A stretch of 64,000 nucleotides of DNA from Escherichia coli (lineage in GTDB: Bacteria > Pseudomonadota > Gammaproteobacteria > Enterobacterales > Enterobacteriaceae), in assembly GCF_044324785.1 (NCBI RefSeq), contig NZ_CP172127.1. One strand, 5' to 3'. Position numbers and translations under genes: made by a program. The stretch's first letter is position 1. Each line of letters opens with the position of its first letter. Below, piece after piece: positions 4,793-63,495 of the stretch. The notes under the pieces were generated by a model. The model was not told the DNA's origin, did not search any database, and worked only from the letters and a program-made list of their open reading frames with translations.

Positions 4793-4796
<4 letters not shown>
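3240..4796 (+). CDS. hsdM: Type I restriction-modification system methyltransferase subunit HsdM (type IC-like, EcoR124/Ecoprr family)
   Basis: 518-aa ORF with AAGGA ribosome-binding site; N6-adenine methyltransferase motif NPPY ([11 protein letters not shown]) and AdoMet motif DPAAGSGSL. Gene order M-S-R with hsdS starting inside the hsdM stop (ATGA) matches type IC organisation. Confidence 0.9.
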
Positions 4797-5962
<1,166 letters not shown>

Positions 5963-50165: not shown

Positions 50166-51362
50166 TTACAGAAATGGTAAAGAAGGCATAACTCCCCGAG
50201 AAATACTGGCTAAGAAACCTTTATCTGGTTGTTCTTCTTTATTGATTAAAGGAAGGTCATCCAAATCGCCCAGCAAATACGTATTTTTTGCCTGCCAGTC
50301 AATCATCCATATTTTCAGCAGTGGGTAAGCCAGACCACCCGTAATCCCGGATATCACCACCAACGCACACATGCGATAAAGCATACCGTGGTACGTTAAA
50401 GTTGAGCGAAAACGAATACGCCCATCATTCAGTGACAGGTTGCTCATAAAATGATTTCGCAACGACACCGTTAAATAACTGGTGCTAACAGCAATCCCAA
50501 AATAATAAATTAACTGCGCGATTATCATTTTACGTTGCATTTCCATAAATTGCTGTAAATTCTCAATGTCATCATTTGCATATACAGAACTATCATACGC
50601 ATTTAATATTTGATCGAAGATAATATAACCAGCAACAGCGAGAAAAGGCAATAAAGCTAAAAATGCGAGAATGGCATATTTTATACAATACGTAGTATCT
50701 AATTTCACCTTGAAACGATGTATACCGAAACTGGTATTGCTCCAGAGAAAACTCATTACCAGACTATATAAAGTACCATTAAAAATACCAATGGAAACAA
50801 TACCAACTATTGCCATCAGAACCATGGATATAATAACACTACTTGAACTATTGGCAGGTAGCATCTTTGTCGAGATAAAGAAAACAGTCCCCATCCCAAT
50901 GGCCATTAAAATCGGCAAGAAAAAGGTCACCCACCAGAACCCTTTCATAGAGCAATTAAAACTAAATCTTACGCCGTTGAGACTGGTCATTAAGGCCTGA
51001 TGACGCAGTCCTTTTGCTGCCATAAATATAAGCAAAGCCAACAGTAACAAAGTCAAAACACAACCAACAAGCGGCATATCTGCTGACACTGTCATTAAGA
51101 TTGCGAAATAGAAAAAAACAAAAACAAGACAACTAACAAAAACATTCCCACCGGTAATTCCATAAGAAAATCGTTGTCCGTTAACTTCCATATTAGCATA
51201 AAGATAACGCTTACATTTCATTAATGCCCATGGTAAATAGATACCTAGCGTTATAATCGTTAACAACACATTCACCACACAAATAAGAAAATATCTCTCA
51301 CCTGTACCATGAAAAACAAACGAATGGGACGGAACATCCATTTCATTAATAACTTGAGCCAT
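50166..51362 (-). CDS. yjgN: Inner-membrane protein YjgN (DUF898)
   Basis: 398 aa from MAQVINEMDV...; multiple transmembrane helices; synteny. Confidence 0.88.
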   Translation of the reverse strand: MAQVINEMDVPSHSFVFHGTGERYFLICVVNVLLTIITLGIYLPWALMKCKRYLYANMEVNGQRFSYGITGGNVFVSCLVFVFFYFAILMTVSADMPLVGCVLTLLLLALLIFMAAKGLRHQALMTSLNGVRFSFNCSMKGFWWVTFFLPILMAIGMGTVFFISTKMLPANSSSSVIISMVLMAIVGIVSIGIFNGTLYSLVMSFLWSNTSFGIHRFKVKLDTTYCIKYAILAFLALLPFLAVAGYIIFDQILNAYDSSVYANDDIENLQQFMEMQRKMIIAQLIYYFGIAVSTSYLTVSLRNHFMSNLSLNDGRIRFRSTLTYHGMLYRMCALVVISGITGGLAYPLLKIWMIDWQAKNTYLLGDLDDLPLINKEEQPDKGFLASISRGVMPSLPFL

Positions 51363-51554
51363 AAAAATTCCCTGAATTAAAAAATCCATTGATATAACTT
51401 ATATATACAGACAGTAAAATGTTCTGCCACGTTACAATACTCTTATCAGTAATAGGCTGGCAAAAACTTTATTACTTTATAAGTCGCTTGCGTACGTAAG
51501 AAGAGAGTGGTATTAAACAAATGTATAATTACTTTATTTTTATTGGGTTAAACT

Positions 51555-52058
51555 ATGAATAACATTGCGCCGCAATCACCTGTAATGCGTCGCCTGACGC
51601 TGCAGGATAATCCTGCTATCGCCCGCGTCATTCGTCAGGTATCCGCCGAATACGGTCTTACCGCTGATAAAGGCTACACCGTCGCCGATCCGAATCTTGA
51701 CGAGCTGTATCAAGTATATAGTCAGCCTGGCCATGCATATTGGGTGGTTGAGTACGAGGGTGAAGTGGTCGGCGGCGGTGGGATAGCGCCATTAACCGGG
51801 AGTGAGTCGGACATTTGCGAACTGCAAAAGATGTATTTTCTTCCGGCTATCCGCGGCAAAGGGCTGGCAAAAAAACTGGCCTTAATGGCGATGGAGCAGG
51901 CGCGAGAGATGGGTTTCAAACGCTGCTATCTGGAAACGACCGCTTTTTTAAAGGAAGCCATTGCGCTTTATGATCATTTGGGCTTTGAGCATATCGACTA
52001 TGCGCTTGGCTGCACGGGCCATGTCGATTGTGAAGTGCGGATGTTGCGCGAACTCTAA
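51555..52058 (+). CDS. yjgM: GNAT-family N-acetyltransferase YjgM
   Basis: 167 aa; followed by hairpin terminator ATGCCCGCG...CGCGGGCAT at 52062..52088. Confidence 0.88.
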
Positions 52059-52779: not shown

Positions 52780-53784
52780 ATGTCCGGGTTTTATCATAAG
52801 CATTTCCTGAAATTACTCGATTTCACGCCAGCTGAACTCAACAGCCTGCTGCAGTTAGCCGCGAAGCTGAAAGCCGATAAGAAAAGCGGTAAAGAAGAAG
52901 CCAAACTCACTGGTAAAAACATCGCGCTCATCTTCGAAAAAGACTCGACTCGTACCCGATGCTCTTTCGAAGTTGCCGCATATGACCAGGGTGCTCGCGT
53001 TACTTATCTCGGCCCAAGCGGCAGCCAGATTGGTCATAAAGAGTCGATTAAAGACACTGCCCGCGTGCTTGGTCGCATGTATGACGGTATTCAGTATCGC
53101 GGCTATGGTCAGGAGATTGTCGAAACACTGGCGGAATACGCTGGCGTGCCGGTATGGAACGGCCTGACCAATGAGTTCCATCCCACGCAGCTGCTGGCGG
53201 ATCTTCTCACCATGCAGGAGCATTTGCCCGGCCAAGCGTTCAACGAAATGACGCTGGTTTATGCAGGTGACGCGCGTAACAACATGGGAAACTCGATGCT
53301 CGAAGCTGCGGCGCTTACCGGTCTGGATTTGCGTCTGGTCGCGCCGCAGGCATGCTGGCCGGAAGCTGCGCTGGTTACGGAATGCCGCGCCCTGGCACAG
53401 CAAAATGGTGGGAATATTACGCTGACAGAAGATGTCGCGAAGGGAGTTGAAGGTGCTGACTTTATCTATACCGATGTGTGGGTGTCGATGGGGGAAGCAA
53501 AAGAGAAATGGGCGGAACGGATTGCATTGCTGCGTGAATATCAGGTGAACAGCAAGATGATGCAGTTGACCGGTAACCCGGAGGTCAAATTCCTCCACTG
53601 CCTGCCCGCGTTTCATGACGACCAAACGACGCTTGGCAAGAAAATGGCGGAAGAATTTGGCCTACATGGCGGTATGGAAGTCACTGATGAGGTCTTCGAA
53701 TCTGCCGCCAGCATTGTTTTTGATCAGGCGGAAAACCGTATGCATACTATCAAAGCGGTGATGGTCGCGACGCTCAGTAAATAA
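52780..53784 (+). CDS. argI: Ornithine carbamoyltransferase ArgI
   Basis: 334 aa; carbamoyl-phosphate motif STRTR and ornithine-binding HCLP. Confidence 0.93.
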
Positions 53785-53839: not shown

Positions 53840-55681
53840 TTATGCAGTGATAGGTTTATTATTCCAGCCAAATTTTTCTATTGCTACACGTAAATTTTCC
53901 GGTGGATTTAGTTTATTTAAACGCTGTTCATTAATATATGGTAATACATTAACTCTCGATTGCAAGATAGTTTGCATCATTCTAAATCTAAGTTTGTATT
54001 CATTATTCAGTTTTTCTTTGATAACATTATCTGGTTGACTCCTCAAAATTTCCTTATTAGATGCCTCATTATTAAAATCATATTTTAAATTATCAAAATA
54101 AATCTTTTCACCCTCATAACCCTTAAGTAACTGAGGGAAGTACCAATTAATCATCTCAGGATTTTTCATAAAGAAATCATTCATAAAAATATCATTCACT
54201 AAAATGCTGACAGGTACTTTATTAAATATAGATTCAACATTATCAAATAGCCTTTGTATTAAATTTGTTTTTTCTCGATTACTTAAGTTAAATTCATTGA
54301 CATATACAACCAACTTATTCCAAATCAACCCCTGTAATTCAGGGCTATTTTTATAGGGTTCTTTATCGAGATTGAAAAATAATGTCTCAGCTATTTTAGA
54401 CTGATCGCTGCGAAGATTAATATGATTTATTACGGAGCATGCATGCTTTATCTTTTTAGTATCATCAAAATATTGCATGCTTTTATTAAAACACCACTCC
54501 AGTATTCTTACATCATAAATATATGGAAATTTTAAAAAAGTCTCCAGCATCGAATCGATGACCGGTGTAAGGTTAACCTTTGCATCATCTAAGGAATCAA
54601 TAAGAATATGAGACAGGTTAATCATGATGTCATTAATTTCATTGTTACCTTTTTTGTCATTATCAATTCCGTGATCATATTCGTAGAGCTTATCTATTTC
54701 ATCAAGTATACCATTTTCGCCCAGTAAGTATGAAATCGATTCATCACATACATGAGGCATTAATAGCAGATGTTCGTTCCTTATTGCTAATAATGCATTA
54801 TTTAATGGTTTTTCTAATAAATCCGCAATCGTAGAATCAACTGAACCTTTACAACTCACCTGCGAGTTATTTAAGTCCTGAGAATTATTTAACTCCTGCG
54901 GATCATTTAACTCCTGTGGACTATTTAACTCCTGCGAGTTATTTAACTCCTGAGAATCATTTAAATTCTGCGGATTATTTAACTCCTGAGGATTATTTAA
55001 CCCCTGTATATTATTTAACCCCTGTATATTATTTAACTTCTGTAGATTATTTAATTTCTGTAAATTATTTAACTTCTGTAGAGCATTTAACTTTTGACGA
55101 TTATTTAACTTCTGATGATTGTTTAATAGACGCGCTATTTCCTTGTTAGCTTCGCTTTGGTAACACGCCAGAACCTTGTTAGTAATCAGGTGTAATGAAC
55201 TCTCATCTTTTCTTTCAAAGGACTTCCCTTCATAACGATTAGTCGAACCATCAGATTGTTTAAATATAATGACTATATGTCCTTCACGAATCCCTTTAGT
55301 ACAAGCTGAGGCAAGTGTAATTTCTATCTTCACCTTAGATAAATCCGCTCGCTCCCTTTCAGGATTATTCATGTAAAACTTCATTTTTTCATTGCCATCA
55401 GTATCTTTAGAATAAGATGAGGACTTAATATGAGCCATCATATTTCTACCCGCTTCGTTGGAGCGTTTGCTAAAATCCACATAACCCAGGGTAAATATCT
55501 TTGCCAAAAACTCCAAAAATGCTCCAGGAGAAAGAATATTCCTTCTGCTATCCTGCCCCCCGGCAATACGGGCAAAATCATTCATTCCAACACGCCAGGT
55601 ATTTAAAACTTCACTTTTTTGTTTAAAATTGTCGGCTAATGTAATGTGTTGAGAATAATTTAAATCTGATATTTTGCTCAT
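53840..55681 (-). CDS. yjgL: YjgL (repeat-containing protein of unknown function)
   Basis: ~613 aa from MSKISDLNYSQ; contains a run of hexapeptide repeats (QKLNNL/QELNNS...). Confidence 0.8.
   Translation of the reverse strand: MSKISDLNYSQHITLADNFKQKSEVLNTWRVGMNDFARIAGGQDSRRNILSPGAFLEFLAKIFTLGYVDFSKRSNEAGRNMMAHIKSSSYSKDTDGNEKMKFYMNNPERERADLSKVKIEITLASACTKGIREGHIVIIFKQSDGSTNRYEGKSFERKDESSLHLITNKVLACYQSEANKEIARLLNNHQKLNNRQKLNALQKLNNLQKLNNLQKLNNIQGLNNIQGLNNPQELNNPQNLNDSQELNNSQELNSPQELNDPQELNNSQDLNNSQVSCKGSVDSTIADLLEKPLNNALLAIRNEHLLLMPHVCDESISYLLGENGILDEIDKLYEYDHGIDNDKKGNNEINDIMINLSHILIDSLDDAKVNLTPVIDSMLETFLKFPYIYDVRILEWCFNKSMQYFDDTKKIKHACSVINHINLRSDQSKIAETLFFNLDKEPYKNSPELQGLIWNKLVVYVNEFNLSNREKTNLIQRLFDNVESIFNKVPVSILVNDIFMNDFFMKNPEMINWYFPQLLKGYEGEKIYFDNLKYDFNNEASNKEILRSQPDNVIKEKLNNEYKLRFRMMQTILQSRVNVLPYINEQRLNKLNPPENLRVAIEKFGWNNKPITA
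54859..55126. repeat. About 15 tandem degenerate 18-bp repeats inside yjgL, encoding hexapeptide Q-x-L-N-N-x units
   Basis: Read directly: repeated TTATTTAACTCCTG-like units, in frame. Confidence 0.85.
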
Positions 55682-55803
55682 GACGAACTCCTTGAGTGAA
55701 TAAGAACGTCTAAGCATTACAAATTTTACTCACAAAAAAATATCAAAAAACGCTCTTTTCACAAACTCGCCGTAAACCTTGAGTTATTTACGGCGAAAAG
55801 TCA

Positions 55804-60798: not shown

Positions 60799-63495
60799 TT
60801 ATTGCCAGCCGTAACGACGGCTATAGAACCCTTTCACCAACTGGGTTAATGTCATATACCCTGCCAGAATCGCAACCAGCCACGGGAAATAGCTTAACGG
60901 CAGCGCCTGCAGCTGCAGATAACTGGCCAGCGGTGAAAACGGCAATGCGATCCCGACAATCATCACGATCACGGTCATGATCATTAACGGCCACGATGCA
61001 CAGCTCTGAATAAACGGTACACGACGGGTGCGGATCATATGCACAATCAGCGTTTGCGACAATAAGCCCACCACAAACCAGCCCGACTGGAACAGCGTTT
61101 GCGTTTCCGGCGTGTTGGCATGGAATACCCACCACATCAGGCAAAACGTCAGAATATCGAAGATCGAGCTGATCGGTCCGAAGAAGATCATAAAGCGCCC
61201 CAGATCCGCCGGATTCCAACGCTGCGGCTTTTGAATTTGCTCGTCGTCGACGTTATCAAACGGGATCGCCACCTGTGACACATCGTACAGCAGGTTCTGA
61301 ATAAGCAAGTGTAACGGCAACATCGGCAGGAAGGGCAAGAAAGCACTCGCCACCAGCACGCTGAACACATTACCGAAGTTAGAACTCGCCGTCATTTTGA
61401 TGTATTTCAGCATGTTGGCGAAAGTGCGACGTCCCTCAATAACCCCCTCTTCCAGCACCATCAGGCTTTTTTCCAGCAGGATGATATCAGCCGCTTCACG
61501 GGCAATATCTACCGCGCCGTCCACAGAAATGCCGATATCCGCAGCACGTAAGGCGGGCGCATCATTAATACCATCGCCCATAAAGCCAACCACATGCCCT
61601 TCGCGCTTCAGTAAGGTCACAATGCGTTCTTTATGCATCGGCGTCAGGCGAGCAAACAGCGTGGTGCGCTGTGCGAGATTTGCCAGTTCGTCGTCAGATA
61701 GCGTTTCAATATCACTACCAATGACCACCTCTCCCGCGTCCAGCCCCACTTCATGGCACACTTTTGCTGCAACTAACTCACTGTCGCCAGTAAGGATTTT
61801 TACGGTAATTCCACTCGCTTTTAATGCCTTCAGTGCCGGAGCGGTTGTCTCTTTTGGCGGATCAAGGAAAGCAATATATCCTTCGAGGATCAGGTCGGAT
61901 TCATCCGCCCGCTGGTAATCTCCTTCACGCGCTGGCAGGTATTTTGTCGCCACCGCAACCACGCGCAGCCCCTGACGATTCAGCGTATCAGTAACCCGCT
62001 TAATCTTACGCAGCATGGTGTCATCGAGCGGTACAATCTCGCCATTGTGACGCACCTGCGAACACACATTGAGGATTTCCTGCAATGCACCTTTGCAAAC
62101 CAGCTGATGGTGCTCGGTATTTTCTGCCACTACCACCGACATCCGGCGACGCTCGAAATCAAACGGAATCTCATCGATTTTTTGCCAACGGCTGGCCAGC
62201 GAGCGCGCTGACTCTTCATCCGTACCTTCGAGCACCGCTGTATCGAGCAGGTTTTTAAGTCCGGTCTGATAATGACTGTTCAACCACGCGCTATGCAGCA
62301 CGCGTTCGCTGGTTTTACCGGAGATATCGGTATGATTCTCCAGCACAATTTTATCCTGCGTCAGGGTGCCGGTTTTATCAGTGCACAGAATATCCATTGC
62401 GCCAAAGTTCTGAATGGCATCCAGATGCTTGACGATCACTTTCTGTTTCGACAGCTTTACTGCGCCGCGCGCCAGCGTCGAGGTAACAATCATCGGCAAC
62501 ATTTCTGGCGTTAAGCCTACCGCGACCGAAAGCGCAAACAGTGCCGCTTCCCACCAGTCGCCTTTGGTGTAACCGTTGATAAGCAACACCACCGGAGCCA
62601 TCACCAGCATAAAGCGAATCAGCAGCATACTGACGCGGCTGATCCCTTGCTGAAAGGCATTCGGCTCGCTTTCCTGCTCACTAACACGCCCCGCCAGTTG
62701 ACCAAACCAGGTGTTGGCTCCTGTAGCAATCACCATTGCTTGTGCCGTGCCGCTCACCACGGTGGTGCCCATAAAACACAGGGTGTCGCACTCCAGCGGA
62801 TTGCTGTGCTCCGGCTGGCGAGTGGTAGCGGCTTTTTCCACGGGCAGAGACTCACCGGTTAACGACGCCTGAGCGACGAACAGATCCCGCGCCTGCAAGA
62901 TACGTAAATCTGCCGGGATCATATCCCCCGCCGCCAGTTTTATAATATCGCCGGGCACCAGCTGGTCGATCGGGATCTCCAGCCAGCCATTTTCGCCTTT
63001 GTCGTTAATTACGCGCAGCACCGTCGCGGTATTGCTGACCATCGCTTTCAGGGCATCTGCCGCTTTAGTGGAACGTGCTTCCTGAATAAAGTTCAGCAAC
63101 GTAGAAATAGCGACCATTAGCGCGATAACACCCGCGGCAAATAAATCTTCCGTGGCGTAAGAAATAGCGCCGAGAATGGTGAGTAAAATATTAAAGGGGT
63201 TGCGATAGCAGACCCATAAATGTACCCACCACGGCGACGGTTGTTGTGCGGGTAATTTATTATCACCATGTTGTTCGCGGGCAGATTCCACTTCCGCCTG
63301 ATTTAATCCTTCCGGATGGGTGTCGAACGTTTTCCATAATTCTTCTTCGGGCATCACCGCCATTTTCAGGCAATGCGCACTTAAGGACGGCGGGACCGCC
63401 GTATTCACTGTCTGCTGCGCGCCAGGTAATGGATCGCGATGAACCAGACGGGAAGGTAAATGGCGAATGAACCGAGTAAAAATTTCTTTAAACAT
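60799..63495 (-). CDS. mgtA: Mg2+-importing P-type ATPase MgtA
   Basis: 898 aa; P-type ATPase phosphorylation motif DKTGTLT and hinge motif GDGINDAPAL. Confidence 0.96.
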   Translation of the reverse strand: MFKEIFTRFIRHLPSRLVHRDPLPGAQQTVNTAVPPSLSAHCLKMAVMPEEELWKTFDTHPEGLNQAEVESAREQHGDNKLPAQQPSPWWVHLWVCYRNPFNILLTILGAISYATEDLFAAGVIALMVAISTLLNFIQEARSTKAADALKAMVSNTATVLRVINDKGENGWLEIPIDQLVPGDIIKLAAGDMIPADLRILQARDLFVAQASLTGESLPVEKAATTRQPEHSNPLECDTLCFMGTTVVSGTAQAMVIATGANTWFGQLAGRVSEQESEPNAFQQGISRVSMLLIRFMLVMAPVVLLINGYTKGDWWEAALFALSVAVGLTPEMLPMIVTSTLARGAVKLSKQKVIVKHLDAIQNFGAMDILCTDKTGTLTQDKIVLENHTDISGKTSERVLHSAWLNSHYQTGLKNLLDTAVLEGTDEESARSLASRWQKIDEIPFDFERRRMSVVVAENTEHHQLVCKGALQEILNVCSQVRHNGEIVPLDDTMLRKIKRVTDTLNRQGLRVVAVATKYLPAREGDYQRADESDLILEGYIAFLDPPKETTAPALKALKASGITVKILTGDSELVAAKVCHEVGLDAGEVVIGSDIETLSDDELANLAQRTTLFARLTPMHKERIVTLLKREGHVVGFMGDGINDAPALRAADIGISVDGAVDIAREAADIILLEKSLMVLEEGVIEGRRTFANMLKYIKMTASSNFGNVFSVLVASAFLPFLPMLPLHLLIQNLLYDVSQVAIPFDNVDDEQIQKPQRWNPADLGRFMIFFGPISSIFDILTFCLMWWVFHANTPETQTLFQSGWFVVGLLSQTLIVHMIRTRRVPFIQSCASWPLMIMTVIVMIVGIALPFSPLASYLQLQALPLSYFPWLVAILAGYMTLTQLVKGFYSRRYGWQ

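Follow-up and report, generated by a model that had tools for sequence, protein, structure and literature searches.

A protein-coding 18-bp minisatellite in Escherichia coli yjgL is the known typing locus TR6/VNTR-34 and varies in unit number across the species

Introduction

A stretch of 64,000 nucleotides from an Escherichia coli genome (RefSeq assembly GCF_044324785.1, contig NZ_CP172127.1; the whole of this stretch is called the window below) carries, inside the gene yjgL, an array of 15 tandem 18-bp units that encode a repeated hexapeptide. The array is already known as a locus of MLVA (analysis of variable-number tandem repeats at multiple loci), where it goes by the names TR6, Vhec2, O157-34 and VNTR-34. 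We consider it highly probable that it is a protein-coding minisatellite which gains and loses whole units in frame, that it serves as a flexible spacer within the YjgL protein, and that its length is a largely neutral strain marker and not a switch.

Structure of the array

The gene, the array and the two protein regions that the array separates are placed in the window as follows.

53840..55681, minus strand: yjgL coding sequence (CDS), 613 amino acids plus stop, intact in the window
55127..55681, minus strand: YjgL N-terminal region, residues 1-185, up to and including the conserved left flank ...KEIARL
54857..55126, minus strand: tandem array of 15 in-frame, ungapped 18-bp units, (LNNxQx)x15, residues 186-275 of the 613-residue YjgL
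53843..54856, minus strand: YjgL C-terminal all-helical region, residues 276-613, opening with the right flank SCKGSVDSTI

In the output of Tandem Repeats Finder the tract appears as a single array (54859..55126) with a period of 18, 14.9 copies, 78% matches and a score of 217, by far the strongest tandem repeat of the window; additional descriptions with periods of 36 and 54 refer to the same tract. An earlier note, made from the sequence alone, had counted about 15 tandem repeats in yjgL; read in the frame of the gene there are exactly 15, and the motif Q-x-L-N-N-x of that note is L-N-N-x-Q-x in another phase. The units are, in order, LNNHQK, LNNRQK, LNALQK, LNNLQK, LNNLQK, LNNIQG, LNNIQG, LNNPQE, LNNPQN, LNDSQE, LNNSQE, LNSPQE, LNDPQE, LNNSQD and LNNSQV. 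The reading frame is unbroken throughout, 47% of the encoded residues are Asn or Gln, and the DNA has a GC content of 30% with a repeated TTAAATAAT motif.

Such a pattern does not arise by chance, since the unit TTAAATAATCTACAGAAG has 10 matches in the window with three mismatches at most (0.03 expected) and the period-18 self-identity of 0.81 lies far above that of codons resampled from the same gene (mean 0.30, maximum 0.40, in 2000 samples of 90 codons each). Third codon positions inside the units are as invariant as the others, with TTA in 15/15 units and AAT in 14/15 and 13/15, which speaks for units recently duplicated or homogenised as DNA, beyond selection on the peptide alone. The array is nevertheless degenerate: 13 of the 15 units are distinct sequences, adjacent units share 81% identity on average, and the longest perfect period-18 repeat measures 28 nt. 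Because it holds just one pair of adjacent identical units, lower instability is expected than for alleles with runs of five to six identical units, and the window allele is probably the less unstable one.

Two further features of the locus were observed. A second small repeat of yjgL, at 54165-54204 on the minus strand (period 15, 2.6 copies, 88% matches), belongs to the C-terminal region, where it encodes NDIFMNDFFMK; it is unlikely to be of significance. On the plus strand, an open reading frame (ORF) of 77 amino acids at 54916..55149 runs antisense through the array and encodes (D/N)YLTP-like repeats; it shows no sign of being a gene, and a repeat devoid of stop codons is expected to yield such a frame as a by-product.

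Identity with a published typing marker

The several names of the locus come from separate studies: Vhec2 reportedly from Lindstedt et al. 2003, O157-34 reportedly from Keys et al. 2005, and VNTR-34 is said to be the name used by PulseNet and by Hyytia-Trees et al. 2006 for E. coli O157:H7. TR6 is listed in Table 2 of PMC2246123 (citing Noller et al. 2003) with the 18-bp unit TTAAATAATCTACAGAAG and the primers GATGGTTCGACTAACCGTTAT and TAGCAGATGTTCGTTCCT. An exact copy of this unit lies at 55037-55054 on the minus strand of the window, nine further units come within three mismatches of it, and the TR6 primer pair brackets the array with a predicted amplicon of 489 bp.

55232..55252, minus strand: TR6 forward primer site, one mismatch
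54764..54781, plus strand: TR6 reverse primer site, exact
55154..55180, minus strand: VNTR-34 forward primer site, three mismatches (primer designed on O157)

The TR6 primers match yjgL of O157 and of K-12 with 0 mismatches, and the VNTR-34 reverse primer has more than three mismatches in the window's non-O157 allele. For Vhec2 (= TR6 = O157-34), an 18-bp unit and four alleles in 15 isolates (D = 0.62) have been published (PMC3768571). VNTR-34 (Vhec2, TR6), likewise with a unit of 18 bp, is placed inside the ORF Z5865 with 4-12 repeats in enterohaemorrhagic E. coli (EHEC) O157 (PMC3321953, Table 1), and eight alleles were found in 202 EHEC O157 strains, with a diversity index of 0.66 (PMC3321953). 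In three O157:H7-type genomes both primers and array lie inside a CDS annotated as yjgL, between tabA and argF/argI. Judged by that position Z5865 would be yjgL, and the finding contradicts the possibility that TR6/VNTR-34 maps elsewhere than yjgL.

The window and the MLVA marker thus share the locus (yjgL/Z5865), the 18-bp unit, the primer sites and a polymorphism in whole-unit copy number. They differ in that the window allele is non-O157, has 15 units, above the 4-12 of EHEC O157, and is composed of other units. The suggestion that the array could act as a strain marker was therefore sound, and has been standard MLVA practice since 2003.

Copy-number variation across E. coli

Array length was estimated by joining the two 300-nt flanks into one query and subtracting the query length from the span matched in each record. 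Two samples of 60 genomes were treated in this way, one taken at even steps (58 informative) and one consisting of the best flank matches (at least 97.2% identity). Units were also read directly in 16 fetched loci. In protein representatives, hexapeptides were counted between the conserved flanks ...EIARL on the left and SCKGSVDSTI on the right; the anchors AAGGAAATAGCGCGTCTA and AGTTGTAAAGGTTCAGTT enclose the array segment.

Among the 58 informative genomes of the even-step sample, 18 (~31%) have no array, 25 (~43%) have three units and 15 (~26%) have at least eight, so that long arrays are a minority state found in about a quarter of the sample; these long arrays comprise 8-10 units in eight genomes, 13 in four, 15 in two and 19 in one. 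The 60 genomes with the best-matching flanks cover every length from 12 to 19 units (12 in 32 genomes, 13 in seven, 14 in five, 15 in six, 16 in three, 17 and 18 in two each, 19 in one), together with two genomes at 10. Direct reading gave 19 units in ECONIH1, 18 in A30, 17 in UMNK88, 16 in 19KM1776, 15 in the window, N3 and 38I23CPO002, 14 in TUM13936, 13 in K-12, 12 in OkiPb01677, 10 in SCU-387, and 8, 9 and 10 in O157-type strains; strain 600468 has three, and EC26 and EC-JS426 have a single proto-unit only (LNNHQ/LNNN). At the protein level, 120 representatives hold 3 to 11 hexapeptides between the conserved flanks.

Altogether, counts of 3, 8, 9, 10 and 12-19 units are found across E. coli, in addition to array-less alleles. 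The earlier expectation of an array prone to length variation is thereby borne out, even between strains with identical flanks that carry 10, 15 and 17 units, and the repeat number, which that note had proposed to compare across E. coli genomes, is not invariant. Both the MLVA literature and the O157 strains, with their 8, 9 and 10 units, contradict the idea that copy number tracks deep phylogeny alone.

In the array-less alleles of EC26 and EC-JS426 (loci L008 and L010), one proto-unit (LLNNHQ-LNWKDAIDYNELLEKPL) is followed by a different junction sequence. This arrangement suggests that, in some of the allele lineages, one LNNxQ(x) unit was amplified and so gave rise to the array.

How the array changes

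All 16 arrays that were read are exact multiples of 18 and keep the frame. The most informative comparison is that of UMNK88, 38I23CPO002 and SCU-387, which show 0 differences in 560 nt of flank and have 17, 15 and 10 units, respectively; they differ solely in the lengths of runs of identical units, with TTAAATAATCTACAGAAG present six, five and two times and TTAAATGATTCTCAGGAT three, two and zero times. Identical flanks beside arrays of such different length imply that copy number changes faster than point substitutions accumulate. Run lengths likewise distinguish the O157 alleles of 8, 9 and 10 units; these contain one hybrid unit, LNNIQK, which reads as a recombinant of neighbouring units. 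Between the window and N3 unit 6 alone differs (LNNIQG in the window, LNNLQK in N3), the other 14 being identical, a difference that would amount to one gain plus one loss, or to a conversion. The first unit and the last one or two units belong to conserved types in most alleles, and turnover is internal. For strain A30 the ungapped flank comparison (75-81 apparent differences) was disregarded, as an indel in the flank has probably put the two sequences out of register.

Gain and loss of whole units within runs is the pattern that textbooks give for slipped-strand mispairing or for unequal recombination between tandem units. We infer that in yjgL, too, whole 18-bp units are gained or lost where adjoining units are identical or nearly so, by slipped-strand mispairing in replication, unequal recombination or both. 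Since the unit equals six codons, each such change would stay in frame; it would lengthen or shorten the L-N-N-x-Q-x segment, rich in Asn and Gln, that lies between the helical C-terminal region and the N-terminal one, altering the length of a protein segment and not turning the gene on or off.

The YjgL protein

Neither modelling nor fold comparison assigns YjgL to a structural class. An AlphaFold2 run on a shallow alignment of 26 close homologs gave a mean predicted local distance difference test score (pLDDT) of 51.8 and a predicted template modelling score (pTM) of 0.36. The model places helices and a sheet of five strands in the N-terminal region, with low confidence throughout; the C-terminal region is all-helical (pLDDT ~60-86 over residues 350-610), and the array starts as a helix of low confidence and then passes into coil (pLDDT 24-47). 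A Foldseek search of the model against the PDB returned nothing at E <=0.001, and a PDB sequence search with YjgL found nothing.

Pfam gave sub-threshold matches only, namely FAM222A, which overlaps the array and is spurious, and the central domain of SopA (PF13981). The latter scores 19.0 bits against a cutoff of 27 (E = 0.002), below the gathering score; it falls on residues 367-430 of a 625-residue ORF, outside the array and ~80 residues downstream of it, and precomputed database tables list PF13981 for YjgL homologs. NCBIfam yielded just a spurious match to SagD (14.5 bits, cutoff 219). The array shares a six-residue period with a leading aliphatic residue with the left-handed beta-helix of the PF00132 Hexapep family and with the pentapeptide beta-helix of SopA/NleL. 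Unlike these, it has no Hexapep or pentapeptide-repeat match in Pfam at E up to 1, and the AlphaFold model predicts no beta-helix for it.

When 1.84 billion cluster representatives were scanned exhaustively with HMMER, one full-length YjgL representative (a 50%-identity cluster) and many fragments were recovered. There is also an N-terminal-only relative of 214 amino acids with 48% identity (P0125). Six candidates (P0155, P0156, P0172, P0173, P0183 and P0192) match the low-complexity repeat alone and were rejected as homologs; array-only matches of this kind are unrelated proteins with a convergent xLNxxQx or ELNxSE periodicity. The YjgL family itself appears to be restricted to Escherichia and Shigella.

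Host gene, Shigella ortholog and evolutionary setting

The mechanically called ORF extends over 53840..55717; M13 of this frame, at 55681, is the likely true start, as indicated by the K-12 annotation and by an identical spacing to tabA. The gene is flanked by tabA (yjgK) on one side and by argI/argF on the other, and its GC content of 27-39% compares with ~50% in the flanks. Another AT-rich stretch of the window, at 51000-51600 (33-34% GC), lies ~2 kb past argI.

A megablast search of 5426 complete E. coli genomes found a match to yjgL in 4803 (~88%), annotated variously as 'yjgL: protein YjgL', 'DNA-binding protein' or 'hypothetical protein'. Why RefSeq labels many yjgL alleles 'DNA-binding protein' was not apparent from the Pfam, NCBIfam or PDB sequence searches. 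Several of the fetched records are annotated as pseudogenes on account of a frameshift or an internal stop. The earlier note calls yjgL a core gene; with this distribution and these pseudogene annotations it is better called near-core. The best match is strain N3 at 99.5%, with K-12 at only 93.6%. The N3 copy (locus L001, 1247-3087) carries the annotation of a pseudogene with a frameshift and falls 1 bp short of the intact gene of the window, which could be due either to a real inactivating mutation or to a homopolymer error in the N3 assembly.

The function of YjgL, put down as unknown in the earlier note, is partly known through Shigella flexneri, although not fully. The ortholog of yjgL there is icaR (gem3), which encodes a type III secretion substrate regulated by MxiE/IpgC (PMC9241512, PMC9769918); the orthology itself rests on PMC9241512. 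In Shigella, icaR is truncated by an insertion sequence in M90T and is a pseudogene in 2457T, and 'internal and carboxy-terminal additions' had already been described for the E. coli orthologs of IcaR (PMC9241512, PMC9769918). IcaR and YjgL share the locus, a conserved N-terminal region and the position of the array between ...ARL/ALL and SCKGSVDSTI; they differ in the number of units, which is three in the full-length S. flexneri homolog and 15 in YjgL of the window. A search of the window with the MxiE box consensus GTATCGTTTTTTTANAG at no more than three mismatches gave no match upstream of yjgL, and its sole match, at 61004, is chance-level and far from the gene.

The yjgL CDS is far more divergent between strains than its surroundings, as a comparison of the following segments indicates.

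53840-55681: yjgL, the divergent segment
55682-56256 and 53085-53784: upstream intergenic region, tabA and argI flanks, conserved

Identity to the window is 76-96% for the yjgL CDS, against 97-99.6% for tabA, 96.7-100% for the tabA-yjgL intergenic region and 94.7-99% for argI. Nei-Gojobori ratios of nonsynonymous to synonymous substitution rates (dN/dS) reach 0.38-1.45 in yjgL and 0-0.21 in tabA. This hypervariability could be a sign of relaxed constraint or of diversifying selection; the pseudogene annotations and the high dN/dS fit with weak constraint and with near-neutral length variation.

Weighing the explanations

The evidence is best accommodated if the segment is a flexible low-complexity spacer whose length is most likely under little constraint. 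Most alleles have 0-3 units, three suffice in the full-length homolog of Shigella flexneri, and among long arrays every count from 12 to 19 occurs in addition to 8, 9 and 10; the array is modelled at low confidence (the pLDDT range given above), and the dN/dS values mark yjgL as weakly constrained. Length variation would then be largely neutral, a marker and not a switch.

Several points weigh against a neutral spacer. Strong conservation marks the L, N, N and Q positions over 44 distinct unit types and could reflect a structural or binding role, although concerted evolution of young units could explain it as well. The shallow alignment of 26 homologs makes low AlphaFold confidence weak evidence for disorder. 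As regards the rate of change, all K-12-allele genomes of the even-step sample have 13 units, so that turnover is not fast on laboratory timescales, and the 18-bp VNTR-34 is the least diverse of eight MLVA loci (PMC3321953).

In an alternative view the array would form a structured module with a function of its own, for example a solenoid, a coiled coil or an array of binding sites, with copy number under diversifying selection that tunes the activity or immune recognition of a secreted, effector-like protein. The conservation of L-N-N-x-Q-x over many unit types speaks in its favour, as do the type III secretion of the Shigella ortholog IcaR, the dN/dS of up to 1.45 and the fact that many secreted effectors carry tandem repeats. 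We regard it as improbable, given that no confident structure is predicted on the array, that no Pfam repeat family is found there (the lone overlapping match being the spurious, sub-threshold FAM222A), that most E. coli alleles and the Shigella homolog have so few units, that several fetched yjgL records are annotated as pseudogenes, and that all values from 12 to 19 occur without a preferred multiple. An equally small chance is given to the related possibility that the length of the LNNxQx segment is not neutral and tunes the IcaR ortholog through domain spacing or reach, self-association, or recognition of a host or phage factor. If this were true, the three allele classes and the high dN/dS would reflect diversifying or balancing selection and not decay.

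Intragenic tandem repeats are also found in the contingency loci of Haemophilus, Neisseria and Campylobacter, where copy number likewise changes through slippage, and an intragenic repeat in an AT-rich, horizontally acquired-looking gene invites the idea that repeat number turns yjgL on and off by phase variation. In contingency loci, however, the units either measure 1-8 bp and are not divisible by three or are located in promoters, and thus switch expression; the yjgL unit is 18 bp long, internal to the CDS and in frame in every array read, and the frameshifts and stops of the pseudogene alleles are not attributable to unit number. A frameshift switch was rejected on the grounds of the six-codon unit and the unbroken frame of all alleles, and phase variation is the least probable of the explanations considered here. 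Scarcely more credible is an assembly artefact, i.e. a repeat collapsed or expanded to 15 copies in the window. Tandem repeats are well known to cause misassembly, a point that the earlier note raised; yet the array is just 270 bp long with 13 of 15 units distinct, so that it assembles unambiguously, its frame is intact, the complete N3 genome has the same 15-unit length with 14 identical units, and other complete genomes also have 15. It is similarly very doubtful that the array acts as DNA, for example as a binding or nucleation tract for H-NS, or that it encodes the plus-strand ORF. AT-rich genes like yjgL are typically silenced by H-NS, the array combines a low GC content with the repeated TTAAATAAT motif, and the plus-strand ORF with its (YLTP)-like repeats does exist. 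The 18-bp period, however, is out of phase with the helical repeat of DNA, the whole of yjgL is AT-rich and not the array alone, the plus-strand ORF lacks homolog support and is a by-product of the stop-free repeat, and all copy-number changes preserve the minus-strand frame.

The yjgL array finds parallels in the proline-rich repeats of EspF/TccP and in the Xr region of staphylococcal protein A (used in spa typing), which are in frame, vary between strains, are used for typing and change the length of a low-complexity segment. These repeats have known binding or cell-wall-spanning roles; the YjgL unit is much shorter (six amino acids) and has no sequence relation to them.

Another repeat in the window

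A perfect 12-bp tandem repeat, CTTACCGCTGAG x3.3, lies at 5315-5354 in the middle of an ORF of 389 amino acids (4793..5962, plus strand) that looks like the specificity subunit HsdS of a type I restriction-modification system. The number of TAEL repeats, which is 2 or 3 in type IC systems (EcoR124I/II), determines how long the non-specific spacer of their DNA target is. By analogy, the HsdS-like repeat could be a functional, specificity-switching one, unlike the yjgL array.

Concluding remarks

Nothing in this analysis overturns current understanding. The practical value of the marker has been realised already, as the locus has been a standard component of MLVA in outbreak typing of E. coli O157:H7 since 2003. 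What is added here is a species-wide picture of the marker, in which yjgL alleles fall into array-less, three-unit and 8-19-unit classes, along with a word of caution for comparative genomics: where assemblies differ in the length of yjgL, the difference is biologically real and need not stem from misassembly.

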